Shown: positions 1 to 13,371, counted from the first letter of the stretch. The stretch: 23,475 bases of DNA from a virus (IMGVR_UViG_2529293249_000015:1-23475), one strand, 5' to 3'. Translations and numbers: made by a program. The notes: generated by a model not told the origin, from the sequence alone.

Positions 1-258
1 ATGCAAACCGTTATTTTTGGTCGTCCGGGTTGCCCTTACTGTGTGCGTGCAAAAGATCTGGCTGAGAAATTGAGCAATGAACGCGATGATTTTCAGTATC
101 AGTATGTAGATATTCGTGCGGAAGGGATCACTAAAGAAGATCTACAACAAAAGGCAGGTAAACCCGTAGAAACCGTGCCGCAGATTTTTGTCGATCAGCA
201 ACATATCGGCGGCTATACCGATTTTGCTGCATGGGTGAAAGAAAATCTGGACGCCTGA
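1..258 (+). CDS. grxA: glutaredoxin 1
   Basis: 85-aa ORF with the CPYC active-site motif (GRPGCPYCVRAK), matching E. coli Grx1 in length and sequence; sits beside ybjM/ybjL as in E. coli. Confidence 0.9.
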   Translation: MQTVIFGRPGCPYCVRAKDLAEKLSNERDDFQYQYVDIRAEGITKEDLQQKAGKPVETVPQIFVDQQHIGGYTDFAAWVKENLDA

Positions 259-267
259 TCGTCTGAC

Positions 268-300
268 AAGCCCTCGCGTTGAGGGCTTTACTGATTTTTT
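268..300 (+). terminator. hairpin plus T-run between convergent grxA and ybjM
   Basis: 8-bp stem (aagccctc / gagggctt) with 5-nt loop at 268..288, followed by a T-rich stretch ending in TTTTTT at 295..300; lies between the 3' ends of convergent genes. Confidence 0.4.
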
Positions 301-665
301 CTGTGCTGTGGTTTAAACAAACTACTGATAAATAAGAAACACAGTGCCCCCAGCGCACACCAGAACACCGCGCTTAGTAACCATGCCAGCTCTTGCCAGA
401 ATGAGCGCGTCGGTGAAAAAAACAGCCGCATAATGAGCATCGAACAGGGTGCCGCCAGCATTGCGCCAAACAGAGGTTTCAGGACTTCTCTACGCTGTGA
501 AAAGAAGCTGGCGACTGCTCCAGGAAGAATGAAAAATAGCAAGCCGATTTCAGGATGCCCGGCAGCCCGAAAAGCGCCTTTCATGTGCGTCGCCAGAAAA
601 AGGCACACCACAATGAAGAGGACAAAACAGCAGATTGCCCCCGCCCAACGTTGTTTATGTTTCAC
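288..665 (-). CDS. ybjM: inner membrane protein YbjM
   Basis: 125-aa hydrophobic ORF, N-terminus MKHKQRWAGAICCF, in the expected position between grxA and ybjL. Confidence 0.8.
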   Translation of the reverse strand: MKHKQRWAGAICCFVLFIVVCLFLATHMKGAFRAAGHPEIGLLFFILPGAVASFFSQRREVLKPLFGAMLAAPCSMLIMRLFFSPTRSFWQELAWLLSAVFWCALGALCFLFISSLFKPQHRKNQ

Positions 666-934
666 TCGTTCCTCCTGACACTGCGTCTATCGAACACATT
701 TTTCGCCAGTGTGGCGTTCAGTAAGATAAAGCCGCTTCGCATTCCATGCTAATATAGGCCAACGCAATTCATATAGCCGTTGATACCTAATGTGATTACA
801 CTAGTAAAATATATTGTTACTTTACTATCGTTTAGGTGCGCTGAATGAATCTGCGCCCTGAATTCTGGTAAAAAACATTATCGTAAATTACCATTTCTTT
901 CAACAGCTTACTAGTAAACAAGAAGTTAGCCTCC

Positions 935-2620
935 GTGAATATAAACGTCGCCGAATTGTTAAATGGGAATTACATTCTGTTATTATTTGTGGTCCTCGCG
1001 CTTGGGCTATGTCTCGGAAAGTTACGACTTGGTTCGATCCAACTGGGTAATTCCATTGGCGTTTTAGTCGTATCGCTGTTATTAGGCCAACAACATTTCA
1101 GCATTAACACCGATGCGCTTAATCTTGGCTTTATGCTGTTTATTTTCTGCGTCGGGGTCGAAGCCGGACCGAACTTTTTTTCCATTTTTTTTCGCGATGG
1201 GAAAAATTACCTAATGTTAGCACTGGTGATGGTTGGCAGTGCGCTGGTGATCGCCTTAGGGTTAGGTAAGCTGTTTGGCTGGGATATTGGCCTGACGGCC
1301 GGTATGTTAGCAGGCTCTATGACGTCGACACCGGTTCTGGTCGGTGCTGGCGATACACTGCGTCATTCCGGCATGGAAAGCAGGCAGCTCTCACTGGCAC
1401 TGGATAATCTGAGCCTCGGGTATGCCTTAACCTATTTAATCGGTCTGGTGAGTTTGATTGTTGGTGCGCGTTACTTGCCGAAATTGCAGCATCAGGACTT
1501 ACAGACCAGCGCCCAGCAAATCGCCCGCGAACGTGGCCTGGACACTGATGCCAACCGTAAGGTTTATTTACCGGTGATCCGCGCCTATCGCGTCGGCCCG
1601 GAGCTGGTGGCCTGGACCGACGGCAAAAATCTGCGTGAACTGGGTATTTATCGACAAACCGGCTGCTACATTGAACGTATTCGACGTAACGGGATTCTGG
1701 CAAATCCAGACGGTGATGCCGTGCTACAAATGGGCGATGAAATAGCGTTGGTAGGCTATCCCGACGCCCATGCCCGACTCGATCCCAGCTTCCGTAACGG
1801 TAAAGAAGTTTTCGATCGTGACCTTCTCGACATGCGTATCGTCACTGAAGAAGTGGTCGTTAAAAACCATAACGCTGTAGGTAAACGTCTCGCACAACTG
1901 AAGTTGACCGATCACGGTTGCTTCCTTAACCGCGTCATTCGTAGCCAGATTGAGATGCCGATAGATGACAACGTCGTGCTTAACAAAGGTGACGTTTTAC
2001 AAGTCAGCGGTGATGCCCGTCGCGTAAAAACCATCGCCGATCGCATCGGCTTTATCTCGATTCACAGCCAGGTCACTGACCTGCTGGCATTTTGCGCCTT
2101 CTTTGTTATTGGGCTGATGATCGGGATGATCACCTTCCAGTTCAGCACATTCAGTTTCGGCATGGGGAACGCTGCCGGGTTGTTATTCGCCGGAATTATG
2201 CTGGGCTTTATGCGTGCTAACCACCCGACCTTCGGTTACATTCCGCAAGGTGCATTAAGCATGGTGAAAGAGTTCGGCTTGATGGTGTTTATGGCAGGCG
2301 TTGGTCTGAGCGCCGGTAGCGGTATTAATAACGGCCTGGGCGCGATTGGCGGTCAGATGTTGATTGCCGGATTAATTGTCAGTCTTGTGCCCGTGGTTAT
2401 CTGTTTCTTGTTCGGTGCTTATGTATTGCGAATGAACCGCGCACTGTTGTTCGGCGCAATGATGGGCGCACGCACCTGCGCGCCGGCAATGGAGATCATC
2501 AGTGATACAGCTCGCAGTAACATCCCTGCGCTGGGCTACGCGGGCACCTACGCAATCGCCAACGTCCTGCTGACGCTGGCAGGGACAATCATCGTCATGG
2601 TATGGCCAGGATTAGGATAA
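935..2620 (+). CDS. ybjL: putative AAE-family transporter YbjL
   Basis: 561-aa polytopic membrane ORF with GTG start ([20 protein letters not shown]), central soluble TrkA-C-like region, matching YbjL in length and N-terminus. Confidence 0.85.
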
Positions 2621-2732
2621 AACTGAAGTTGCCCTGAAAATGAAATTTTTTTGCACAACCGCAGAACTTTTCCGCAGGGCATCAGTCTTAATTAGTGCCA
2701 CTGCTTTTCTTTGATGTCCCCATTTTGTGGAG

Positions 2733-2775
2733 CCCATCAACCCCGCCATTTCGGTTCAAGGTTGATGGGTTTTTT
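2733..2775 (+). terminator. intrinsic terminator-like hairpin downstream of ybjL
   Basis: Perfect 10-bp stem cccatcaacc (2733..2742) / ggttgatggg (2760..2769), 17-nt loop, followed by TTTTTT (2770..2775). Confidence 0.5.
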
Positions 2776-2855
2776 GTTGCCTGAAATTTATGCCTTTTAA
2801 AATCATGATGTTAGAAGCAGTGTTTTTTAACGATGGCGACAAATTGGCGGCAGAG

Positions 2856-3074
2856 TCAAAGAGAGAGCGCCACCTGTCCTGATTTCATTGGATGCGGCTG
2901 AACCGGATTTGACTCTTTTGGCGTTGCAATCGAACGAACAAAAGTTTCATGGGTAACAAAAGTATGGCTGCAGTTAATGTTCTGGCACTGGTTGTAACGC
3001 TCTTTGGTCAATGAAGATACCTGAAAACTGCTGCGAGTATGGGCGGCACTTCCACACAGTGGGCAAATCATCAT
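2856..3074 (-). CDS. ogr: Ogr-family zinc-finger late transcription activator
   Basis: About 72 aa from MMICPLCGSAAHTRSS with C-x2-C ... C-x4-C pattern (CPLC ... CQNINC), resembling P2 Ogr; located directly after D as in P2. The tracked ORF extends 11 codons upstream; I take the MMICPLC start. Confidence 0.85.
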   Translation of the reverse strand: MMICPLCGSAAHTRSSFQVSSLTKERYNQCQNINCSHTFVTHETFVRSIATPKESNPVQPHPMKSGQVALSL

Positions 3075-3164
3075 TTTTCGAGTTCTCCTCATTTTTGCTA
3101 AATTCACAATAATGATACCGCATTATTCCATTTTGAAAACTTAAAAGTTCTCCATTGCGAAGAA

Positions 3165-4265
3165 TCATTCAATTTCGAAATCATCAATCTTCACTTCAAG
3201 CTCCAGACTGGTCGTAAAACCGTTATCCGGGCTGACAGTATGCGTCAGGGTGGTAATGGTCCATTCCGCATCATCTATCGGCTGTTTAAAGCCACTGACC
3301 TTCACAGGCATTTCCGTGTAGAGATCTGCCCGACCTTCTGCCAGTTGTAGCGAGAATGACGCAACGCCGCGTTGCAGGCGTTCCCACTGCATTTTCGCCG
3401 CTCGTTCGGCGTTGCTCCGGTTGGCATAAGTGCGATTAAGTACCAGCACGTTTTCATCCGTACCCACCAGGTAATCGCCCTGCTTCGCTTCCGGCTCTTT
3501 CTTCTGCTTCTTAGTCCTGCGCTTACGCTTCACCGTGGTGCTTTCTTTCTTCTCGGGTTCGCGGGTATGCAACCAGCTGGCAATTACGCCCGTGTAGGCT
3601 CCGCGATCTGCCAGGGTAAAGCGGTGACTGTCGCCGTCCTTGCGTGTGATAGTGATAACCGGTAGTGGTTTACCGCTGGCGCTTTTGCCCTGTCCCTGCC
3701 GAATGAATAACAGATTGCCATTTTTCACCGACGCAATAGCACCGTACTGGCGCGCCAGCCGCATCAAAAAACTGCCGTCACTTTCATTGGTCTGGTCTAT
3801 ATGATCCACGGGTTTATTCGACAGGTCTTTACCCAGTGCCATCTTCAGTTTGTGCCGCGCGGCTATTTCCTTCACCACTTCCCCGACTGTGGTCTTGTGC
3901 CACGACTTTTCACGGCGGGTATTCAGCGTTTCACGAAAATCAGCACTTCGCGCCCGGATAGTCAGGCGATCCGGCGCGCCAGTGTGTTCAATCTCGTCCA
4001 CCGTGAATGCCCCTTTCGGGAAAAGCGGCTGCCCCTTCCAGCCCAGCGCCAGCGTAATGACCGCACCACGGCGCGGCAGCGCGATTTTTCTGTCGGCGTC
4101 GTCCAGTTCCAGATCAAGCTGGTCTGCTTCAAAGCCCCGGTTATCCGTCAACGTCAGCCCCATCAGGCGGTTGTCCAGCACAGTGGTGATATCCCTGCCC
4201 TCAATACTGATGCTGAATGCCGGAGTTTTGTTGCCTTTCTTAAGCAGTTCAGAGCTGAAATTCAC
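3165..4265 (-). CDS. D: tail protein D (late control gene D homologue)
   Basis: 366-aa ORF, GTG start overlapping the U stop; position and size match P2 gpD. Confidence 0.85.
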   Translation of the reverse strand: MNFSSELLKKGNKTPAFSISIEGRDITTVLDNRLMGLTLTDNRGFEADQLDLELDDADRKIALPRRGAVITLALGWKGQPLFPKGAFTVDEIEHTGAPDRLTIRARSADFRETLNTRREKSWHKTTVGEVVKEIAARHKLKMALGKDLSNKPVDHIDQTNESDGSFLMRLARQYGAIASVKNGNLLFIRQGQGKSASGKPLPVITITRKDGDSHRFTLADRGAYTGVIASWLHTREPEKKESTTVKRKRRTKKQKKEPEAKQGDYLVGTDENVLVLNRTYANRSNAERAAKMQWERLQRGVASFSLQLAEGRADLYTEMPVKVSGFKQPIDDAEWTITTLTHTVSPDNGFTTSLELEVKIDDFEIE

Positions 4266-4747
4266 GACAGCAGCCCTCCCACCGTTTTACTGATATCACT
4301 TAAGGCAGATGTTGCCGTGTCCTGCAGATTATTCAGTTGCGTACTGAGATCACCGAACATATCGGACAGGGATTCATCCACCCGTTTGAGCGACAGGGTG
4401 AACTCAATCCGGCGCGGCATACCGTCGCGGAAAAACTCCGTTTTAGACTGATTTAGTCCCTCAATCACATACATGCCGTAAATCGTGCCGCTGCCTTCAA
4501 TCAGAGGCCATGCTTTCCCCTGTTCTGCCATCTGCTCCAGTGCCAGCAACGACAGCCTGCCGCCTGTTATCTCCGGCATAAGAACACCAGAAAGCGTCAG
4601 CATGTCATTGTCCGGTCCCAGAAACTGCGTTGACGGGCGTCGGTTAACCCGGCTGTTAGCCGCATGTCGCCAGCTGCGCTGATACTGCAGCTCCTGATAC
4701 GGCACGGTGCGCAGCATAAACACGTACAATCCCAGCACCATCATCAT
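4262..4747 (-). CDS. U: tail protein U
   Basis: 161-aa ORF (MMMVLGLYVFMLRTVPYQELQYQRSWRH) resembling P2 gpU; start overlaps the T stop. Confidence 0.9.
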   Translation of the reverse strand: MMMVLGLYVFMLRTVPYQELQYQRSWRHAANSRVNRRPSTQFLGPDNDMLTLSGVLMPEITGGRLSLLALEQMAEQGKAWPLIEGSGTIYGMYVIEGLNQSKTEFFRDGMPRRIEFTLSLKRVDESLSDMFGDLSTQLNNLQDTATSALSDISKTVGGLLS

Positions 4748-7700
4748 GCGTCGTATCCCCCCTGATCGCTGTAGTTACTCCTGGCTTTTGCCTTCAGCCT
4801 GCGTTCACGTTCATCAAGCTGGCGGGCCACCTCCCGCGCAATATCCTGCGCACTTTGTCCTGGCTGCGTCTGAATGATGATCTGCGTCGGTGCCTCAATC
4901 CGTTGAACGGGCGGCACAGCAGCTGCGCGACTCACCATCGCTTCACCGCCTTTCGCGGGAAGCGCCAAAGGATGCAACGGTGGAAGCTCTACTGGCGCGG
5001 CAGCAACGCCCATCATTCCGGCAACAACGGCAGCCAGTGCAGCTGTATTTCTCCGGCTGGTCACATTTGCCGGGCCGTTAACAATTTCCGGCCCGTTTTC
5101 ACCGACGATGCCAAACTGCCCGCGCGGGATATACCCGCCGCTGTCATACATCCCCGCAAAGCCATATCCCCATGACGGAAAACCACCTGATGGCATCATC
5201 ACTTTGCCGTCTGCATTCACTGTTGCGGGTTGCTGACGCGTCACGCTTTCCGGCAGTTTCGCCTTTGCAGCCTCTTTACTGATAATGCCGAGTTTCTCCA
5301 GCAACCAGGAAACGCCGGATTTCAGGGAGTCCAGCGGATGCATGACCATATTCAGCCCTTCCGCCAGTGCCTCCCCGAATCGTCGCCCCATTGCCGCTGC
5401 GCTCTGCAGTTCGGCAGAGGTCGACTTAACGGGCGTCAGCAGATCAGTAAACCAGCCCCACAGCGCCTGCACTTTGTCGCCAATCCACTGGAACACGGGC
5501 TTAAGCGGTTCGAACGCTGCACTGATGGGACCTGCCGCCGCTTTGAATCCTTCCACCACGCCACCGAGAAATGCGGTGATGGGTTGCCAGTATTTCCAGA
5601 CAACCAGCGCCACGCCCGCCAGTGCAGTAACCACAAGACCTATCGGACTGAGCAGAGCACCTAACAGACCAGATATGGCATACAGGGCAACGCGCAGCAT
5701 CGCCAGTGGACCAGATGCCAGTACTCGCAGCACCGTGCCTGCGGCGGCCAGTCCACCGCGCAGTACCGCCAGAGGATTCATAAACATCACAGCAACAGCA
5801 CGTAAACCGGATAATCCAGACTGCAAAAGTGCAACCGGCGCACCTGCTACAGTTTTCAGGACATTTCCCGTCAGTGATGCCGTGCGGCGCAAAGACGACA
5901 ACGGCGCAGTAAGTAAACCTGCGGCGTTGCCCGATGAAGCAAGCCCGCGTCGCAGCAGTGCCAGTGGTGCGCCAGCCAGCCAGGACAACGCGCTGCTGGT
6001 TCGAGTTACTGCTGCCGTAACGGAAGATAACGTTTTGATACCCAACACAGAGAATCCCAGACGGATCACTGCCAGCGGCCCCAGCACTGCAGCCAGCGCC
6101 ACCGCTAAGGTGCCGAGGCCGACGGTAACCGCAGCCACAACAGCCGATGCTTTCATCAGTGTGCCTGTCAGTTCCGGGTTAGCTTCCACCCAGCGACGCA
6201 ACGCCCCCGTGACGCTTTTCACCGTGTACAGAATATCCATCAGCGGCTGGCGCAGCGTTTCGCCCAGGCTGCTGAAGGTGTTCTGCGCTCCGGTTTTAAC
6301 CAGCAACCACTGCGCAGAAAGTGAATCCTTGTTAATGTCGGATTCTTTCTGCATGGAGCCAAGCGCATCATTGCCCGCTGTCAGTTTTAACTGACGCTGC
6401 AGTTCCGGCAGGTTGTTTGCCAGTTTCGCCGCGTCATCGCCAAACTCTTTACCAAACAACATAGTCATGGCAGACAGGCGCTTGTCCTGCGGCAGCGCGT
6501 TTACCTTCTCCAGCACGCGCTGGATAGTTCCCATCGCATCCTTCGTCATCTGCTTTTCAATCACTTCAGGATTGAGTTTCAGCAGATTCATCCCTTCAAA
6601 GAAACTCTTGCTTTGCATGGTGGCAATGGACAATTCACGCACCATCGCGTTTGCTGCACTGGCTGCAACCTCTGGCGCAGCGCCCAGTGTCAGGAAGGTG
6701 GAACCCAGCGCCGCCGCTTTACGATAATCCAGACGGTCAGCCACACCGCCCAGACGTTGCATCACATCAATGATGTCTGCCCCTTTCGACATGGCGTTAT
6801 CATCCAGATAGTTCAGCGCATCACCGAGCTGTTCAATATTGCGGGTGGGGATTTTGTAGAGCTGGGCGATTTTCCCCAGACTTTCTGACAGTTCATCCGC
6901 TGGCAGCTCAAAGGCTGTTGCCGCCTTTGCTGCCGTACTGGCGAAGGCCAGCAGGTCACGTTTCTGATCTTCCCAGCTGTCGTCAGGGTTTGCGACGTTC
7001 ATGCGCGCACCACCTTCAACCAGTGCAGCGAAGTCCACCGCACCGTTTTCCATCGGCAACTGTTCGCTGGCAGCCTTGATGGCATCCTGCATTTCATAAA
7101 AACGTGCAGTGCGGTTGCCATTATCGTCACGCAGACCATTGACCTGCTTTGCCACACCTTTCATGGCATCTTCCATGCTGGTATAGCTTTTTACTGCCGC
7201 CATCACTGGCGCACCCATTGCCAGCCCTGCAGCCGTGGTGGTGGCTCCGGCACCTGCAATACGATCACGCACCTCCAGCGAACGGGCATAACTGGCACGC
7301 GCTGCATTCATCCTACGCTGAGCTTCCCCCAGTCGCTTCAGCCGCGCCTCCTGTTTCGAAAGTTCCTGGTTATAACGTGATGTTTCACGGGCTAAACGGG
7401 CAGTTGCTCCCGCATCGTCTTTCGCAGAAATTCCCGCCCGGTACAGTTCAGCACGCACTAGCGCCGTCTGCTGCTGCAGCTTTTTCTGGCGTTCTTCCAG
7501 GCGCTGAACAGCCAGCCGTTGACGGCCCAGAGCAACAACCTGACGTTGCGAAGGCGGCCCCATCGCTCCCAGTTCCTGACTGAGCAAATTTGCACGCTGG
7601 CGGGCATAGTTCAGCCTGTCGCCTAATTTCTGATTTTCTGCCTGCAGCTTTCGGAAGCTGTCCAGACTGCTCCCGGCCTGATCAAGCTGCTTTATTGCAT

Positions 7701-7821
7701 CGCGGGATTTTTTGACAGCAGCAGCCAGTTCTCTTGAACTGGCCTGCGCAGATCGAAATGGGCGGGTGAGCTTGTCAACCGCATTAAGAATGACCTGCAG
7801 ACGCAGGTTGTTATCACTCAT
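4744..7821 (-). CDS. T: tail tape measure protein
   Basis: 1025-aa ORF with coiled-coil-like N-terminal third, hydrophobic Ala/Leu/Gly-rich repeat block and Gly-rich C-terminus; directly downstream of E/E'. Confidence 0.9.
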   Translation of the reverse strand: MSDNNLRLQVILNAVDKLTRPFRSAQASSRELAAAVKKSRDAIKQLDQAGSSLDSFRKLQAENQKLGDRLNYARQRANLLSQELGAMGPPSQRQVVALGRQRLAVQRLEERQKKLQQQTALVRAELYRAGISAKDDAGATARLARETSRYNQELSKQEARLKRLGEAQRRMNAARASYARSLEVRDRIAGAGATTTAAGLAMGAPVMAAVKSYTSMEDAMKGVAKQVNGLRDDNGNRTARFYEMQDAIKAASEQLPMENGAVDFAALVEGGARMNVANPDDSWEDQKRDLLAFASTAAKAATAFELPADELSESLGKIAQLYKIPTRNIEQLGDALNYLDDNAMSKGADIIDVMQRLGGVADRLDYRKAAALGSTFLTLGAAPEVAASAANAMVRELSIATMQSKSFFEGMNLLKLNPEVIEKQMTKDAMGTIQRVLEKVNALPQDKRLSAMTMLFGKEFGDDAAKLANNLPELQRQLKLTAGNDALGSMQKESDINKDSLSAQWLLVKTGAQNTFSSLGETLRQPLMDILYTVKSVTGALRRWVEANPELTGTLMKASAVVAAVTVGLGTLAVALAAVLGPLAVIRLGFSVLGIKTLSSVTAAVTRTSSALSWLAGAPLALLRRGLASSGNAAGLLTAPLSSLRRTASLTGNVLKTVAGAPVALLQSGLSGLRAVAVMFMNPLAVLRGGLAAAGTVLRVLASGPLAMLRVALYAISGLLGALLSPIGLVVTALAGVALVVWKYWQPITAFLGGVVEGFKAAAGPISAAFEPLKPVFQWIGDKVQALWGWFTDLLTPVKSTSAELQSAAAMGRRFGEALAEGLNMVMHPLDSLKSGVSWLLEKLGIISKEAAKAKLPESVTRQQPATVNADGKVMMPSGGFPSWGYGFAGMYDSGGYIPRGQFGIVGENGPEIVNGPANVTSRRNTAALAAVVAGMMGVAAAPVELPPLHPLALPAKGGEAMVSRAAAVPPVQRIEAPTQIIIQTQPGQSAQDIAREVARQLDERERRLKAKARSNYSDQGGYDA

Positions 7822-8250
7822 CGTTGGCCCCGCTTCTCTGAATCGCTTTATACCGCCATTCCAGCACTTCGGTCAGCGGCATAACGTCAGTAACGGATGG
7901 CGGCCAGTGAAAAATGGTGGCGATATCTGCCACCAGATCGTCAACCGTCAGGCTGTCGGTAAAACGGCAAGCACCGACTTCTTCAACAAAAAAGTGACAA
8001 CCTCAACCGACATGGCAGTGAGATCTGCCGGGTCCATCTCTGCAATTTCCTGTGCAGTCAGTGCCGGACTGGAGATGCGGGGGATCACGGTCATCATCGC
8101 GTTTACATCCATATCCATAATGGCCTGCAGGCGTGTACCGCGCAGCGCACCGGACTGCGGTTTACGCAGCACAATTTCGGTGATTTCTGTTTTACCGCGC
8201 TTGATGGGGGTATCCAGTTGAATGGTCTTTTCAGTCTGCTTATCGCTCAT
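7815..8250 (-). CDS. E: tail assembly chaperone E+E' (product of programmed -1 frameshift)
   Basis: A -1 shift at T_TTT_TTG (complement of 7987..7993) opens a frame that I translated by hand to ...VEEVGACRFTDSL...RSGANDE and that ends at TGA (complement 7815..7817), overlapping the T start codon. Confidence 0.65.
7948..8250 (-). CDS. E: tail assembly chaperone E
   Basis: 100-aa ORF immediately upstream of T in the P2 gpE position; contains the slippery heptamer near its 3' end. Confidence 0.85.
   Translation of the reverse strand: MSDKQTEKTIQLDTPIKRGKTEITEIVLRKPQSGALRGTRLQAIMDMDVNAMMTVIPRISSPALTAQEIAEMDPADLTAMSVEVVTFLLKKSVLAVLPTA
7987..7993 (-). other. slippery heptamer T_TTT_TTG for E/E' -1 frameshift
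   Basis: Minus-strand sequence ACT TTT TTG TTG in the E frame; the same heptamer type used by P2 E/E' and the lambda G/GT family. Confidence 0.65.
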
Positions 8251-8304
8251 TTTGCTGTCCTGTCAATTGGGTTCTGGCGCGGTATCCCGCGCCGTTCAGA
8301 TATA

Positions 8305-8820
8305 TCAGAGGCCGAGGGCGTTGCGGTGCGCTTCCATCAGGTCCACACCGTCCACAATTTCCACCATGTTGATAAGGTCCACTTCATAGAGCACCTCACC
8401 ATTGATGGTCAGCTTCGCGTAGCTGTTGGTACTGGTCACTTTGGTGGTGTTGCTTTCGCCCGTCTTCCACTCGCCGGAATCCACTTCTTTGTGACGTCCA
8501 CGCACGACAAGCTCCACGGCCTGCACTTCCCCGGTATCGTCACGCTGAATAGAGCCGGTAAAGCGCAGCTGGATGCCATCCACCGTGGCTTTACCCATCT
8601 GTTTAAACAGCAGCAATTCAGTACCACCAATGGAAAATTCTGTGTCCAGCGCACTGTCATCAAGCCCCAGATCCACATCCACCGCACCCGGCATTCCGCC
8701 GCCGCGATACTTCTCATATTTGCGGGTAAATTTCGGCAGCGTCAGCGACTCAACGATCCCCTGCCAGTTGTTCCCGTCGTTAAACAGGTTCAGGTGTTTT
8801 AATTTGCGTGGTAAAGCCAT
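8305..8820 (-). CDS. FII: tail tube protein FII
   Basis: 171-aa ORF (MALPRKLKHLNLFNDGNNWQGIVE) resembling P2 gpFII; downstream of the sheath gene. Confidence 0.9.
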   Translation of the reverse strand: MALPRKLKHLNLFNDGNNWQGIVESLTLPKFTRKYEKYRGGGMPGAVDVDLGLDDSALDTEFSIGGTELLLFKQMGKATVDGIQLRFTGSIQRDDTGEVQAVELVVRGRHKEVDSGEWKTGESNTTKVTSTNSYAKLTINGEVLYEVDLINMVEIVDGVDLMEAHRNALGL

Positions 8821-8829
8821 GTTGTCCCC

Positions 8830-10002
8830 TTACGCGCTGACCTGGCTGGCGAAATTCACCAGGTACTGATCGGTGATGCGCTGACGCAGCATCAGGTTTT
8901 CAAGTGGCGGCACTGGCGTGTAGTCGTAGTCGATGGTGAATTTTCCGGCTTTCAGCGTGTCTTTGTCGTTCACCGACTCATCCAGCCAGCAATCACCACC
9001 AATGAGATAGCCCTGACTGATCAGGCTGCGCATTTTGGCGCGGATACCTTCGATAATGTCGCGGGCCAGCGACGGGTTAAGCGGTTTATCCACCGCCCAC
9101 ATGTGTGCTTCTGCCATCGTGTCCATCAGCACCTGCGCCGTGCGGGTGTAGTTTTCGAAGGCAAAGAGCGGGTCATCACTCAGGCAGCGGGAACCCCAGA
9201 AGCGGAAACCGTCTTTACGCACAAGCGTGGTGACGTCGTTCTGGTTCAGCAGACCTGCATCGGTTGCCGGGTCCTGCAGATCCCAGAACACATCTGCAGA
9301 AATTCCGGTGACACCGTTCACGCCCACGTTGGACAGGCTTTTGTGCCATCCGGTCTGCTCGTCAATTTTGGCGCGCAGACCAAGCGCACGGGCGGTGGCA
9401 TATGCCGTTGCTTCGGCATTCAGCACCGTGTCCCAGCCAGTAAAGTCAGGCCAGATCAGCATCCCTTCGCGCTGGCTGAAGTTTTCGCGGTAAGTGATCG
9501 CCTCCTGCACTGTCTTGCAGCCATACGCTGACAGGTAAGCAAATCCACGCAGGCTTTGCGCCACGCTCAGCAACTCAGTAGCTACCGCCTTGGTGTCGTG
9601 GCCTGGCACGCCGAGAATGCGCGGTTTAACGCCGAGCTGTGACTGGGCAGATAACAGGGCTTTCATACCTGTTTTTTTACCTTCAGCAGTCACTGCGCCG
9701 ATGATATTGGTCGTGGTTTCGTCTTCCGTTTCACCCTGCGGCACACGCACAACAATGGTCACGGGTTTTGCCTGGTCAGCGATGGCATCCAGCGAACGGG
9801 CCAGAGTACCTGACTCACCCGCTTTACCGCTGGCAGTCAGCACATCAGTGATCAGCACGGGTTTATTAAGAGGAAACATTTTTGCATCGGCATCATCGCC
9901 CGTGCAGACCATACCCACGATGGCGGTGCTCACCGTGGTAATAGATCGGGTGCCTTCGTTGACTTCAACAACGCGCACCCCGTGGTGGTAATCCTGAGCC
10001 AT
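8830..10002 (-). CDS. FI: contractile tail sheath protein FI
   Basis: 390-aa ORF ([21 protein letters not shown]) resembling P2 gpFI; strong AGGAGG RBS upstream. Confidence 0.9.
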
Positions 10003-10078
10003 AGTGGCGAACCTCCTGATTGGATTAGGCTTCGCCCTATGTTGAAGTGATTGTGCCTGACAAACAGCTAAGCGCAGT

Positions 10079-10096
10079 TGTACCGTTATTCACACA
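10079..10096 (-). promoter_or_regulatory. candidate Ogr-dependent late promoter element upstream of FI (P_F)
   Basis: TGT-N12-ACA dyad (coding strand TGTGTGAATAACGGTACA), then 34 nt, then CAACAT, then about 40 nt to the FI start codon. Confidence 0.45.
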
Positions 10097-10144
10097 AAAT
10101 GACGGTATTTGTCTGCTTGCAGGGATAATCAAAATAATGCTGAT

Positions 10145-10711
10145 TCAGGGGGATTCATTACTCTTATTTGCCGGAAATTTTCTATAAATTGTGGAAACAC
10201 CCACATCAAAAATCAGTGCAATACGCTGTCTTGATTCTCCGCCCTCGAGTAAGCGTCCAATCTGTGCCCACTGTTCGGTGGTCAACTTAGGACGGCGTCC
10301 ACCTACTCTGCCTTTATCACGAGCTGCAGCCAGCCCCGCCCTGGTACGTTCAACTATCAGTTCGCGTTCCATTTCAGCTAGGGCCCCCATGACATGAAAA
10401 AAGAAACGGCCCATTGGGGTGCTGGTATCAATACTGTCAGTCAGGCTTCGGAAATTCACGCCACACTGACGCAACTCTTCTATCAGCGTAACAAGATGCC
10501 GCATACTGCGCCCCAACCTGTCCAGCTTCCAGACAACCAGAGTGTCTCCTGCCGATAGTGTCCTGAGCAGTTTTTTAAGCCCCGGTCTGTCGGACTTAGT
10601 GCCACTGATTTTATCCTCAAAAATCCGCTCACATCCCGCGCAGTTCAGTGCATTACGTTGCAAATCGGTGTTCTGGTCATTTGTTGACACGCGTACATAG
10701 CCAATAAGCAT
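10145..10711 (-). CDS. serine-recombinase DNA invertase (Gin/Hin/Cin/Pin family)
   Basis: 188 aa from MLIGYVRVSTNDQNTDLQRNAL with catalytic Ser motif and C-terminal helix-turn-helix; near-identical in stretches to Gin/Hin. The tracked ORF has a 15-codon upstream extension; the ATG at 10711 has an RBS. Confidence 0.9.
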   Translation of the reverse strand: MLIGYVRVSTNDQNTDLQRNALNCAGCERIFEDKISGTKSDRPGLKKLLRTLSAGDTLVVWKLDRLGRSMRHLVTLIEELRQCGVNFRSLTDSIDTSTPMGRFFFHVMGALAEMERELIVERTRAGLAAARDKGRVGGRRPKLTTEQWAQIGRLLEGGESRQRIALIFDVGVSTIYRKFPANKSNESP

Positions 10712-10778
10712 GATCAATCCCCTGAATAAAAACCGTGGATGATGCCAGTTAGCCATTATCTCTGCATTTTCATAAACG

Positions 10779-10809
10779 TTGGTTTGGGAGAAGCGGCAAA
10801 ACGGAATGT
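10779..10809. repeat. left inverted repeat of invertible segment (recombination site)
   Basis: 31-bp sequence ttggtttgggagaagcggcaaaacggaatgt, a perfect reverse-complement match to 12293..12323. Confidence 0.8.
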
Positions 10810-11134
10810 GGGAACAGGTTCAGGTCAGATACCGGATATGAGTAGCTTTGCATCAGCACTCTCTTCGAGTGGCTACCAGAAATTACCTTCTGGACTAATT
10901 ATTCAGTGGGGGGCGGCTGTTGCTGGAATTGGCAGCACTGGGGGTACAGGAAATGTAGTCTCATTCCCTGTTGCATTCCCCAGATATTGCGCCCAAATAA
11001 TTACATCTTACGATAATGGAAGCTCGTCAATCATTGCTGGTGCAGCAGGAAACCAAACTACCACTCAATTTCTTTTACGTTGTGGTGCAACCGGTGGTAG
11101 TTATAACTTCCGCTGGTTAGCCGTGGGGTATTAA
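10781..11134 (+). other. alternative tail-fibre C-terminal (receptor-binding) cassette, currently unexpressed orientation
   Basis: Begins in frame at the repeat with GLGEAAKRNVG, the same residues found at the H crossover point, and continues as a different fibre tip (...QIPDMSSFASALSSSGYQKLPSGLIIQWG...). Confidence 0.7.
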
Positions 11135-11136
11135 TT

Positions 11137-11580
11137 ATGGATAACTACTATTTTTCACCTTCGACTTTGGCATTTTATCCTGAAGATCTCATGTTGTTAT
11201 ATGAAGCAGCAGGAACTTTACCTGATGATATTATTTCTGTGCCACATGAAATATTTGCTACTTATTCAGGAGAGCCACCACGAGGAAAAAAGCGAGGTAC
11301 TACAGAAGATGGGCAGCCCACCTGGAGTAATCTGCCGCCTTTAAGTCATGAGGAAGAAGTTGAGGTTGCGGACGCCCAAAGACAGTTTCGTATTGATGAG
11401 GCGAACGACTACATGAATAGTAAGCAATGGCCAGGTAAAGCCGCTATTGGTCGTCTGAAAGGCGAGGAACTGGCGCAATATAATTCGTGGCTGGATTATC
11501 TGGACGCACTGGAGCTGGTCGATACTTCCGGTGCGCCAGATATTGAATGGCCTACACCTCCGGTAACTCAGGCCAGCTAA
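11137..11580 (+). CDS. tail-fibre assembly protein, alternative-orientation copy
   Basis: 147-aa ORF ending in the conserved tail-fibre-assembly motif VDTSGAPDIEWPTPP; follows the alternative fibre tip. Confidence 0.8.
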   Translation: MDNYYFSPSTLAFYPEDLMLLYEAAGTLPDDIISVPHEIFATYSGEPPRGKKRGTTEDGQPTWSNLPPLSHEEEVEVADAQRQFRIDEANDYMNSKQWPGKAAIGRLKGEELAQYNSWLDYLDALELVDTSGAPDIEWPTPPVTQAS

Positions 11581-11947
11581 TCTCAGGAGCCGTCGAAGTG
11601 TCGACGGCTTTTACTTCTTTTTTGTAGTCCATCCAGGCAGATAGTTTTTCTTTATCTGTACTGCTGATATCACCAAGCATTAATTCCACCCGCCAGTCAG
11701 CTGTGACATTATCGGCATGAGCAAGTAACTGCATTCGCTGATTTTCAGCACGTGCGACATAATCAATCGCCGGAGATTTCAGTACCGGTAAACCATTTTC
11801 ATCTGACGTGATTAATTTCCCCCCTTCCTGCTGTCCGGCAATTAATTCATTGTATAAGTCTGTACTTATCTCAACAATGTCAGCAGACATGTCGCTGTTT
11901 ATACCATCAAAGAAAAAACCATTAGTCGATTTTGAGAAATAAATCAT
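11552..11947 (-). CDS. tail-fibre assembly protein, active-orientation copy (P2 G position)
   Basis: 131 aa from MIYFSKSTNGFFFDG, ending in VDTSTAPEISWPELP; starts just after the H stop; overlaps the opposite assembly gene by 29 bp at the 3' ends. Confidence 0.8.
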   Translation of the reverse strand: MIYFSKSTNGFFFDGINSDMSADIVEISTDLYNELIAGQQEGGKLITSDENGLPVLKSPAIDYVARAENQRMQLLAHADNVTADWRVELMLGDISSTDKEKLSAWMDYKKEVKAVDTSTAPEISWPELPEV

Positions 11948-11955
11948 AGATATAC

Positions 11956-13371
11956 CTATACACCGATTGCTACCCAAAAACAGGACCTTTCATATTTGAC
12001 AATTTCTCCCTGAGATATACCGCCAACAATTATATAGAACTGTGATTTGCTGATATCAGAACAGTTCGCTATGCCCATTGCAGATATACCAGCCACCGAC
12101 GTTGTATGTGGCACAGCCAACAGCGCAAGTGAACGATTTGGGAATGTTACCGGGTAAGTCACCGTATAGTTTGATGCTCCACTGACAATACCCCACTGAA
12201 TAATCAGACCTGAAGGGAGTTTTTGAAACCCCGTTGATGAAAGTGAACTGGCAAACGCCGCCATATCCGGAATTTGGTTTTGCTCGTTACCTACATTCCG
12301 TTTTGCCGCTTCTCCCAAACCAAGGTATGTGAGAAGACCAGTTACATCCTTTCCACTCAAATTAGTCAGCGTATTGTCCAGCGGTTGTTTACCTGCCAGT
12401 GCATTAAGCATTGTCGTGGCAAAGTTCGGGTCATTCCCCAGCGCCGCCGCCAGTTCGTTCAGTGTATCCAGTGCCGCAGGTGCAGAACCCACCATTGCCG
12501 CAATCGCCGATTTCACAAATGCCGTGGTGGCAATTTGTGTATTGTTGACCGACTGTGCCGCAGTAGGTGCGGTTGGCGTTCCGGTGAGTGCCGGACTCGA
12601 CAGCGGCGCTTTCAGTGCCAGCGCATTGTTAATGGTGGTACTGAATTTCGGATCATTGTTAATGGCTGCGGCTATTTCTTTCAGCGTGTCCAGCGTGGCT
12701 GGCGCACCATTAATAAGGGCCGTCAGTGCCGCCTGTACAAACGCAGTGGTCGCAACCTGCGTGGTATTATTCCCCGCCGCTGGCGTTGGCGCTTTGGGGG
12801 TTCCGGTAAATGTCGGGCTGGCTTTTGGCGCGTACTGTGAATGCGGGTCCGGTGCGGCAAGATGTTTTGCCATCTGATCATCCGCGTACACCTTCAGCTC
12901 CAGTGCCTTGTCATCCACATACTTGCGGGTTGCCAGCACTACAGCAGGGTCGATTTTCAGGGTGATATTGTCCGTGCTGCTGGTAATCAGCACCATGCGC
13001 ACGGTCTGAGTGCGCCCGCTACCTTCAGCCAGTTGCGGCTTATAGCTTTCCGGGCAGTTGCCCACGGCAATCAATGCCCCGGACTCATCAAACAAGCCCA
13101 CTTCACGTATCCACCAACCGCCCTCGTTTTCAGGGATCACCTGTTCGGCAATAATCTGGCTGCTGTTCTGCGGGTCGATATAAAGCATATTCAGCGCAGC
13201 CCGGCGTTTCTCATTTACCAGTGCCGTCTGCTTTGCGTCCGGCGTTGGCAATACTCCACCGCCATCGCCCACCGCCATATGGGTAATTTTTAGCGGCACA
13301 CCGAGCGCGGCGGCGCTGGCAAGTTTCGCCGCGCCAATATCCGTCAGCAGGGTATAAAATTTTGTGCTCAT
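11956..13371 (-). CDS. H: tail fibre protein H
   Basis: 471-aa ORF with P2 gpH-like N-terminus (MSTKFYTLLTDIGAAKLASAAALGVP); the C-terminal 122 aa lie inside the invertible segment. Confidence 0.9.
   Translation of the reverse strand: MSTKFYTLLTDIGAAKLASAAALGVPLKITHMAVGDGGGVLPTPDAKQTALVNEKRRAALNMLYIDPQNSSQIIAEQVIPENEGGWWIREVGLFDESGALIAVGNCPESYKPQLAEGSGRTQTVRMVLITSSTDNITLKIDPAVVLATRKYVDDKALELKVYADDQMAKHLAAPDPHSQYAPKASPTFTGTPKAPTPAAGNNTTQVATTAFVQAALTALINGAPATLDTLKEIAAAINNDPKFSTTINNALALKAPLSSPALTGTPTAPTAAQSVNNTQIATTAFVKSAIAAMVGSAPAALDTLNELAAALGNDPNFATTMLNALAGKQPLDNTLTNLSGKDVTGLLTYLGLGEAAKRNVGNEQNQIPDMAAFASSLSSTGFQKLPSGLIIQWGIVSGASNYTVTYPVTFPNRSLALLAVPHTTSVAGISAMGIANCSDISKSQFYIIVGGISQGEIVKYERSCFWVAIGV
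12293..12323. repeat. right inverted repeat of invertible segment (recombination site, inside H)
   Basis: Reverse complement is identical to 10779..10809; encodes GLGEAAKRNVG in the H frame. Confidence 0.8.
12382..12816 (-). repeat. tandem duplication of a roughly 70-aa module within H
   Basis: Two adjacent units, TGTPKAPTPAAGNNTTQVATTAFVQAALTALINGAPATLDTLKEIAAAINNDPKFSTTINNALALKAP and TGTPTAPTAAQSVNNTQIATTAFVKSAIAAMVGSAPAALDTLNELAAALGNDPNFATTMLNALAGKQP. Confidence 0.6.

Follow-up and report, generated by a model that had tools for sequence, protein, structure and literature searches.

Invertible tail fibre segments are already known from phage Mu (the G segment), phages P1 and P7 (the C segment), P2-like prophages of enteropathogenic Escherichia coli (EPEC) and phage Cartapus. 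Here, we describe a locus of this known kind and family in a viral stretch of 23,475 nucleotides (IMGVR_UViG_2529293249_000015:1-23475, below called the window), where a DNA invertase gene, two opposed cassettes and the fibre gene H are found between positions 10145 and 13371. With high confidence, we regard the locus as a two-state, invertase-driven tail-fibre switch of the Mu G / P1 C type, carried by a P2-like (Peduoviridae) prophage beside ybjL. An earlier sequence-only reading had proposed a switch of this type, and the recombination sites, the invertase, the opposed cassettes and the relatives found in both orientations all agree with it. The switch is intact and very probably active. 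As the mechanism is a textbook one and the prophage family is very common in E. coli, the locus carries small weight as a discovery.

The locus shares several properties with the G segment of Mu. The invertase gene adjoins the segment on its outside and, like gin, is read in the direction leading away from it, and the recombination core is 68 nt from the invertase ATG compared with 67 nt in Mu. The crossover falls within a fibre gene (S in Mu, H in the window) that has one constant and two variable parts, and the cassettes, each with a tip and an assembly gene, are opposed (Sv-U and Sv'-U' in Mu). Further, the invertase aligns to Gin without gaps at 75% identity, each site has 26 bp, and the enhancer (sis in Mu, predicted here) is in the 5' end of the invertase gene. 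Unlike Mu, the phage of the window is P2-like, its segment is 1.5 kb long instead of 3 kb, and only about 110 fibre residues are swapped. The core is AA, as in cix and hix, and not GA as in gix (TTCCTGTAAACC-GA-GGTTTTGGATAA). The tips are gp53-like and unrelated to S/S' of Mu, and the two assembly genes overlap at their 3' ends.

For the sites, the C segment of P1 and P7 is the closest system. For the comparison we used the cix and gix sequences as annotated in the records of P1, P7 and Mu, where the crossover is marked at the central dinucleotide. The inner half-site is TTCTCCCAAACC in the window and TTCTCTTAAACC in both P7 cixR and P1 cixL, the outer half-site is GGTATGTGAGAA in the window, GGTATTGGATAA in P7 cixR and GGTTTAGGATTG in P1 cixL, and the core is AA in all of them. 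The invertase is 77.5-78% identical to Cin (77.5% for P7), and 56 of the 72 positions of the annotated P1 enhancer are equal in the window, at a whole-gene identity of 70%. However, cin of P1 runs toward the segment, cixL overlaps the 3' end of cin, and the P1 segment is 4.2 kb long, whereas in the window, as in Mu, it is the 5' end of the invertase gene that is turned toward the segment.

Phage Cartapus (NC_070909), in which the invertase is annotated as "Mu phage Gin invertase homolog", belongs to the same element family as the window. The flanks of Cartapus and of many E. coli prophages are 95-97% identical to those of the window, with the same sites, and some carry module A at about 99%. 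The P2-like loci of EPEC E2348/69, which also have invertible tail fibres (PMC4272514), probably belong to this family as well; they include a three-repeat, four-state version, whereas the window has two sites only. Salmonella Hin/hix and Pin of e14 share the recombinase family, the 26-bp sites with AA core, a Fis enhancer (predicted in the window) at a distance of about 100 bp from one of the sites, and the conserved Fis-contact residues. Unlike the window, Hin flips a promoter and not a coding cassette, and hin is located inside the segment, while e14 is a defective lambdoid element.

Recombination sites, invertase and predicted enhancer

The order along the region is invertase (minus strand), a promoterless gp53-like module (plus), tfaB (plus), tfaA (minus) and H (minus), see Table 1. 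The sequence-only reading claimed identical 31-bp inverted repeats, and when rechecked the two arms (TTGGTTTGGGAGAAGCGGCAAAACGGAATGT on the left) are exact reverse complements over 31 nt. The ends of the repeat are set by mismatches on both sides (10778/12324 and 10810/12292). No other perfect inverted repeat in the 23.5-kb window is as long; 20 mononucleotide shuffles gave 13-22 nt. The right arm was said to be located within H and to encode GLGEAAKRNVG; it is indeed inside the 471-residue gene, and the encoded peptide is GLGEAAKRNV. As also described, these residues are in frame in the left arm too, which leads into a different, gp53-like C-terminal module.

The 2-bp core is located at the outer edge of each 31-nt arm, and therefore one half-site lies within the repeat and the other outside. 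The two sites are inverted, are built from imperfect 12-bp half-sites and have identical AA cores. From core to core, the exchanged segment covers 10780-12322, 1543 bp. An alignment to gix and cix, suggested in the earlier reading, matches over the 26-mer, with the AA core as in cix. That reading had also taken an inner dyad of the arms, GTTTGG...CAAAAC, for the site bound by a recombinase dimer, and here it was mistaken, as the true 26-bp sites centre on the outer arm edge. The dyad is present in each arm at 5 of 6 positions, yet it consists of the inner half-site and downstream coding sequence, and we rejected it as a recombinase site.

The 73 proximal and 48 distal sites recognised in related loci on viral contigs all have the AA core, and the outer half-site is conserved in either kind, even in the proximal one, where it is non-coding. 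The position of the proximal site upstream of the invertase ATG is fixed in the 73 loci with a recognised site. In relatives built in the same way, the perfect repeat most often extends 15 nt inward from the core (28 of 56 loci, range 7-34), which is about one half-site plus the core, as with hix. The length of 31 nt is therefore incidental, and the 26-bp site, rather than the perfect repeat, is the functional unit. This is of use when genomes are scanned for switches of this kind. No third site was found in the whole window, where only two matches to TTCTCCCAAACCAA exist at up to three mismatches. It is thus not a multiple-inversion system with at least three sites and more than two arrangements, such as Min of p15B, the shufflons or the three-repeat loci of EPEC.

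The invertase had been read as a serine recombinase of the Gin/Hin family encoded just outside the segment, and both its Resolvase and HTH_7 domains and its alignment to Mu Gin (PDB 3UJ3, 4M6F), gapless over 184 residues with 138 identical (E=4e-92), confirm this. The protein has the N-terminal catalytic domain with Ser9 and the C-terminal helix-turn-helix of a small serine recombinase, and it keeps Y5, R7, the nucleophile S9, D64, R65 and R68. We place the start at the homologous ATG at 10711 (MLIGYVRVST); the open reading frame (ORF) listing extends to an ATG at 10756 (10145-10756).

Gin M114V is a Fis-independent mutant. In the window, M114 is wild type and so is H106, at the position of Hin H107, where mutation gives Fis independence; therefore, nothing points to a Fis-independent variant. 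Q151, R154 and L155 of Hin are uniquely conserved in Fis-dependent invertases (PMC3798978). The corresponding Fis-contact residues, Q150, R153 and L154, are kept in the invertase, and helix B is basic (K47, R50). The switch probably depends on Fis.

The earlier reading had also suggested a search for a Fis-dependent enhancer near the 5' end of the invertase gene. At the level of sequence the search was positive, with two 15-mers that fit the Fis consensus and together form a candidate enhancer of about 65 bp. At the coordinates of the predicted site II, P1 and P7 cin (GCGCAGGATGTGAGC) and Mu gin (GTGCAGGATGTGAAC) have 15-mers that match as well. The Fis consensus is degenerate, and the canonical spacing of Fis sites is 48 bp, as reportedly found by Johnson, Glasgow and Simon in 1987. 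The centres of the predicted sites are 48 bp apart and their outer edges span 63 bp (nt 23-85 of the gene). This is the only consensus pair at that spacing within the gene; codon shuffling produces any such pair in 3.2% of the shuffles and a pair at the observed positions in 0.02%. The distance between the proximal core and the centre of the predicted site I is 97.5 bp; in hin it is about 100 bp. The 48-bp spacing fits an enhancer of 65 bp with 15-bp Fis cores at each end (PMC3798978).

In 72 unique invertase genes, the synonymous diversity is 0.07-0.10 at nt 13-48 and 0.14 at nt 73-96, compared with 0.29 between the two dips and 0.29 over the remaining gene. The predicted site I is located in the stretch of lowest synonymous diversity of the gene. 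Such paired dips would be the footprint expected of two flanking protein-binding sites, while the first dip could instead reflect constraint at the translation start.

By homology to Hin, Gin and Cin, the inversion can be outlined as follows. Dimers of the invertase would bind the two 26-bp sites, with cores at 10779-80 and 12322-23, and host Fis would occupy its predicted pair of sites within nt 1-85 of the invertase gene, at a distance of about 100 bp from the proximal site. The sites and the enhancer would then assemble into an invertasome, in which Ser9 would cut the identical AA/TT cores with a 2-nt stagger, and a 180-degree rotation of subunits followed by religation would invert the 1543 bp. 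In the present state H consists of the constant part and tip A, followed by tfaA, and in the inverted state it would consist of the constant part and tip B, followed by tfaB.

Fibre tips and the two orientations

The constant part of H has 95.5% nucleotide identity to relatives, regardless of the cassette that they carry. In the present orientation module B has neither a start codon nor a promoter of its own, and the silent cassette is free of frameshifts and stop codons. When 10780-12322 is flipped in silico, an open H(B) of 467 residues is obtained, compared with 471 residues for H(A). H(B) is the same as H(A) up to G351-LGEAAKRNVG and diverges thereafter; past the first 47 or so shared or similar residues the tips diverge strongly, and they may well differ in host range. 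The junction is within the shared GLGEAAKRNVG linker, therefore both fusions are in frame. In the flipped form, tfaB starts 2 nt past the stop codon of H(B). The crossover is thus inside the fibre ORF, one constant part is joined in frame to either tip, and each orientation brings its own Caudo_TAP assembly gene downstream of the expressed tip. This is what the sequence-only reading had predicted, namely that an inversion would swap the fibre tip and its chaperone in frame. Over its full length of 467 residues, H(B) is also 97.9% identical to a fibre that is annotated in a prophage of E. coli EC11.

Both orientations are found in nature among near-identical relatives. Between a prophage of E. 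coli FDAARGOS_1372 and phage Cartapus the flanks are identical (2279/2279 and 1877/1877), while the segment agrees at 1530 of 1533 positions when flipped and at 511 of 1533 when compared directly. Strains N24 and N17, isolates from cerebrospinal fluid, carry the element at the same chromosomal position, with identical flanks (2835/2835 each) and a segment that matches at 1533/1533 flipped and 512/1533 direct. The third pair is the Combat13F7 chromosome and a 45-kb record of the same assembly, with flanks of 2786/2786 each and a segment of 1582/1582 flipped against 516/1582 direct; this pair is inverted with a perfect repeat of just 19 nt. The invertases of the elements that are flipped between clonal isolates are 96-98% identical to that of the window, and the sites are the same. 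Isolates of one clone can thus differ through such an inversion.

Individual junctions can also be followed in complete E. coli genomes. Tip A joined to the constant part of H, the junction of the window, is contiguous in 14 of them, and tip A joined to the invertase side, which is the synthetic flipped junction, is contiguous in 39. In P2-like prophages of EPEC coexisting orientations were found by sequencing and by the polymerase chain reaction (Goldberg et al. 2014, PMC4272514). For the exact element of the window, the evidence for both orientations is suggestive, and this copy would be expected to switch as its relatives do.

The 45-kb Combat13F7 record (NZ_CP019246.1, "plasmid pCombat13F7-1", 45,156 bp) carries the tail region of a P2-like prophage. 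In a comparison over 7.2 kb the record equals the chromosomal copy save for the flipped segment, and its H is marked as incomplete by the Prokaryotic Genome Annotation Pipeline (PGAP). The record may represent a phage genome that was excised, or a duplicate made in assembly from the minority orientation.

Table 1. Coordinates of the switch features in the window.
Feature	Coordinates	Strand	Basis or remark
DNA invertase gene, 188 residues, Gin/Cin/Hin/Pin family	10145-10711	-	Pfam Resolvase E=9e-52, HTH_7 E=2e-15
Predicted recombinational enhancer	10622-10693	-	Corresponds to the annotated P1 enhancer, nt 19-90 of cin
Predicted Fis site II, GCGCGGGATGTGAGC	10627-10641	-	Gene nt 71-85; 7/7 of degenerate Fis consensus
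Predicted Fis site I, TGTCAACAAATGACC	10675-10689	-	Gene nt 23-37; 7/7 of degenerate Fis consensus
Proximal 26-bp recombination site, TTCTCCCAAACC-AA-CGTTTATGAAAA	10767-10792	-	Core 10779-10780; cix/gix match; 8/12 half-site symmetry
Left arm of perfect 31-nt inverted repeat	10779-10809		Direct comparison
Module B (Sv'), silent alternative tip, gp53-like C-terminal domain	10781-11134	+	Pfam Gp53-like_C E=2.5e-17
tfaB, assembly protein paired with module B, 147 residues	11137-11580	+	Pfam Caudo_TAP E=6.8e-26
Terminator-like hairpin and T-run directly after tfaB	11585-11612	+	Terminator scan; 12-bp stem, 6 GC pairs
tfaA, assembly protein paired with the expressed tip, 131 residues	11552-11947	-	Pfam Caudo_TAP E=3.9e-24
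Fibre gene H, 471 residues	11956-13371	-	ORF; right repeat arm inside
Module A, variable H C-terminus, expressed orientation	11956-12322	-	Gp53-like_C at H residues 384-470
Right arm of perfect 31-nt inverted repeat, within H	12293-12323		Direct comparison; codes GLGEAAKRNV
Distal 26-bp recombination site, TTCTCCCAAACC-AA-GGTATGTGAGAA	12310-12335	+	Core 12322-12323; cix/gix match; 10/12 half-site symmetry
H constant N-terminal part, about 350 residues, P2-type tail-collar N-terminal domain	12323-13371	-	Pfam Phage_tail_fib E=4e-65, residues 1-150

The nucleotide sequence of tfaA is 99.7% identical to its homologues in two relatives. The convergent 3' ends of tfaA and tfaB overlap by 29 nt (11552-11580), and they do likewise in three relatives, these two included. 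The strong hairpin behind tfaB falls in the 3' coding end of tfaA, on the opposite strand, and the terminator scan gave no terminator after the tfaA stop (11552). Because the hairpin is found only behind the tfaB cassette and the invertase is on the strand of the late tail operon, the switch could be asymmetric, with an invertase dosage, and hence a switching rate, that depends on the orientation; we think this unlikely. If it were so, late transcripts could pass the B cassette in antisense and reach the invertase gene when A is on, and when B is on the tfaB hairpin would block them short of that gene.

The silent cassette also forms an ORF of 131 residues (10739-11134, plus strand), whose ATG is outside the repeat, in the 5' leader of the invertase. 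PGAP labels the equivalent ORF in relatives "hypothetical protein" or "gp53-like domain-containing protein". Most likely the ORF is an annotation by-product of the unexpressed tip and no independent gene. A practical use of the analysis is therefore in annotation, since the silent cassette is routinely labelled as a free-standing "hypothetical" or "gp53-like" protein.

Copies of the exact element and rival explanations

Contigs with the exact element were retrieved with tfaB, whose sequence is unchanged by the orientation. Two Logan contigs span 10780-12322 (1543 bp), where a break is expected at k=31 whatever the heterogeneity. Two NCBI contigs span 10811-12291, and contig L098 ends at 12323. 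Contig L097 (GCA_012363355.2) follows the window at 100% identity from 7137 to 12323, and its next 24 nt are those of the flank on the invertase side in reverse complement, i.e. it has a fold-back end. This end agrees with the predicted flipped junction at 94/94 positions and with the native junction at 81/94, and the same contig also holds the native left junction.

Such contig ends are the signature expected of a mixed population, and they suggest one for this exact element. As proof of heterogeneity they were downgraded: the Logan breaks are typical of k=31 graphs at any 31-nt repeat, and the fold-back of L097 would be meaningful only if its assembly had used k>31. The evidence from L097 is suggestive at most, since graph ambiguity at small k would give the same pattern. 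In practice, short-read assemblies break or fold back at these repeats.

Several observations weigh against an active switch. A single long copy was found (GCA_946055615.1, 100% over 9.4 kb), and its orientation is that of the window. No complete E. coli genome contains the inner segment at 80% coverage or more; the pairing of A and B is absent there, and therefore its flipped form is unseen as a finished sequence. The contig breaks could be de Bruijn-graph artefacts at k<=31, as those of the Logan contigs certainly are. Conservation in the enhancer is confounded with coding constraint and with translational constraints at the 5' end, and a chance match to the degenerate Fis consensus is expected about once per 128 nt. 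Finally, a simple scan between the proximal site and the ATG gave no sigma-70 promoter for the invertase. In addition, module B was found in none of the 80 viral-contig loci, and the exact H(A) protein was found only on contigs of the same orientation.

The strongest alternative is a frozen relic, which would keep the anatomy of a switch without inverting, either from lack of invertase expression or from a defective prophage, so that the fibre would permanently carry tip A. That all long contigs of the exact element have A on and that the scan gave no invertase promoter would fit such a relic, as would the locked EC11-type derivatives that exist in other genomes. Against it, the invertase ORF is full length with all catalytic and Fis-contact residues intact, both sites have identical cores and consensus half-sites, and the silent cassette has acquired neither a frameshift nor a stop. 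Moreover, elements with the same sites and with invertases 96-98% identical to this one are flipped between clonal isolates, and independent assemblies of the exact element break at the repeats, one of them entering the flipped junction. We therefore give the relic only a slight chance.

The second alternative keeps the inversion but ascribes it to RecA recombination between the 31-nt repeats, which would have arisen from shared linker codons, with the invertase incidental. The repeat does encode the shared peptide GLGEAAKRNVG, so that protein conservation alone could explain the identity, and a crossover point is unresolvable within identical arms. The minimum for efficient RecA recombination is usually quoted as 23-27 nt. 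The relatives mostly share the 15-nt repeat described above, and the 19 nt of the flipped Combat13F7 pair are also below that minimum. Further, conservation reaches past the repeat into the non-coding outer half-site that completes a cix-like 26-mer, the proximal site is fixed upstream of the invertase ATG in the 73 loci with its core 68 nt away, as in Mu, and where the invertase has been lost the segment is truncated and fixed. A RecA origin is thus highly improbable.

The least credible explanation is an assembly artefact, by which the source contig would contain a chimeric join or an inverted duplication. Short-read assemblers do mis-join at inverted repeats, and L097 has a fold-back end. 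However, independent assemblies have the identical arrangement down to the single base, finished genomes and phage genomes have it with other cassettes, and every ORF is intact and in synteny with the tail clusters of P2-like phages.

Genomic context and cassette mosaicism

The window is E. coli chromosome at its start, where grxA-ybjM-ybjL (1-2620) is 99.9% identical to 5419 complete genomes. The junction region (1-3165) holds ybjM (288-665, minus), ybjL (935-2620, plus) and an ogr/Delta-like gene, up to gpD (3165-4265, minus). As host genes are followed by the ogr/Delta-like gene and then by gpD, the prophage is integrated immediately downstream of ybjL. The P2-like late genes are all on the minus strand, in the order D, U, tape measure, tube, sheath, the switch, H, I, J, W, V and head genes onward, and P2-type H, I, J, sheath and tube genes were recognised by domain.

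Sequence related to 10000-12700 is present in 2781 of 5426 complete E. coli genomes, about half, and also in phages Cartapus (Peduoviridae) and 500465-1 and in Klebsiella phage records. Compared with its closest relatives, the window differs only at 10810-11390, which corresponds to tip B and the first 85 or so codons of tfaB, and homology of about 98% resumes at 11391. The C-terminal 63 or so residues of the assembly protein are common to different cassettes, while the N-terminal 85 or so vary along with the fibre tip. The segment is 1456 to 1982 bp long in relatives, most of which have neither module A nor module B.

Module B is found at 99.8% identity in another type of prophage, beside yfdG/yfdH (O-antigen glucosylation), and it is also found within another myovirus-like tail module. 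Three matches to window 10774-11908 (L008 3210-4300, L010 and L099 3306-4772) cover module B and tfaB, and L099 also contains part of tfaA. In the non-P2 prophages module B is fused to short, unrelated fibre genes (214-230 residues) through the GLGEAAKRNVG linker. These copies keep the complete 26-bp site, TTCTCCCAAACC-AA-GGTTTTCGAGAG. The 99.8% identity of module B and tfaB in non-P2 prophages points to a recent cassette exchange between different tail modules. As module B occurs so nearly unchanged behind the same site in such a prophage, the 26-bp site together with the GLGEAAKRNVG linker could possibly act as a portable docking junction that moves cassettes between unrelated tail modules. 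The mosaicism of modules here is the familiar one of fibre tips, and the pairing of A and B is expected cassette shuffling that involves no new mechanism.

In E. coli EC11 (NZ_CP073360.1), H carries module B, tfaB is intact and the second tfa gene is truncated (2451-4700 of locus L009). The invertase is reduced to a C-terminal helix-turn-helix fragment. Since only this remnant of the gene is left, the EC11 arrangement is a naturally locked B-on derivative. At least 15 complete genomes share it; their sources are humans, poultry, pets and livestock.

In a few related viral contigs the invertase or the constant part of H was matched at unexpected positions or strands. In L039, for example, the constant part of H is downstream of the invertase, and in L036 and L089 the best invertase match is on the minus strand. 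Such contigs may represent larger rearrangements or tandem prophages.

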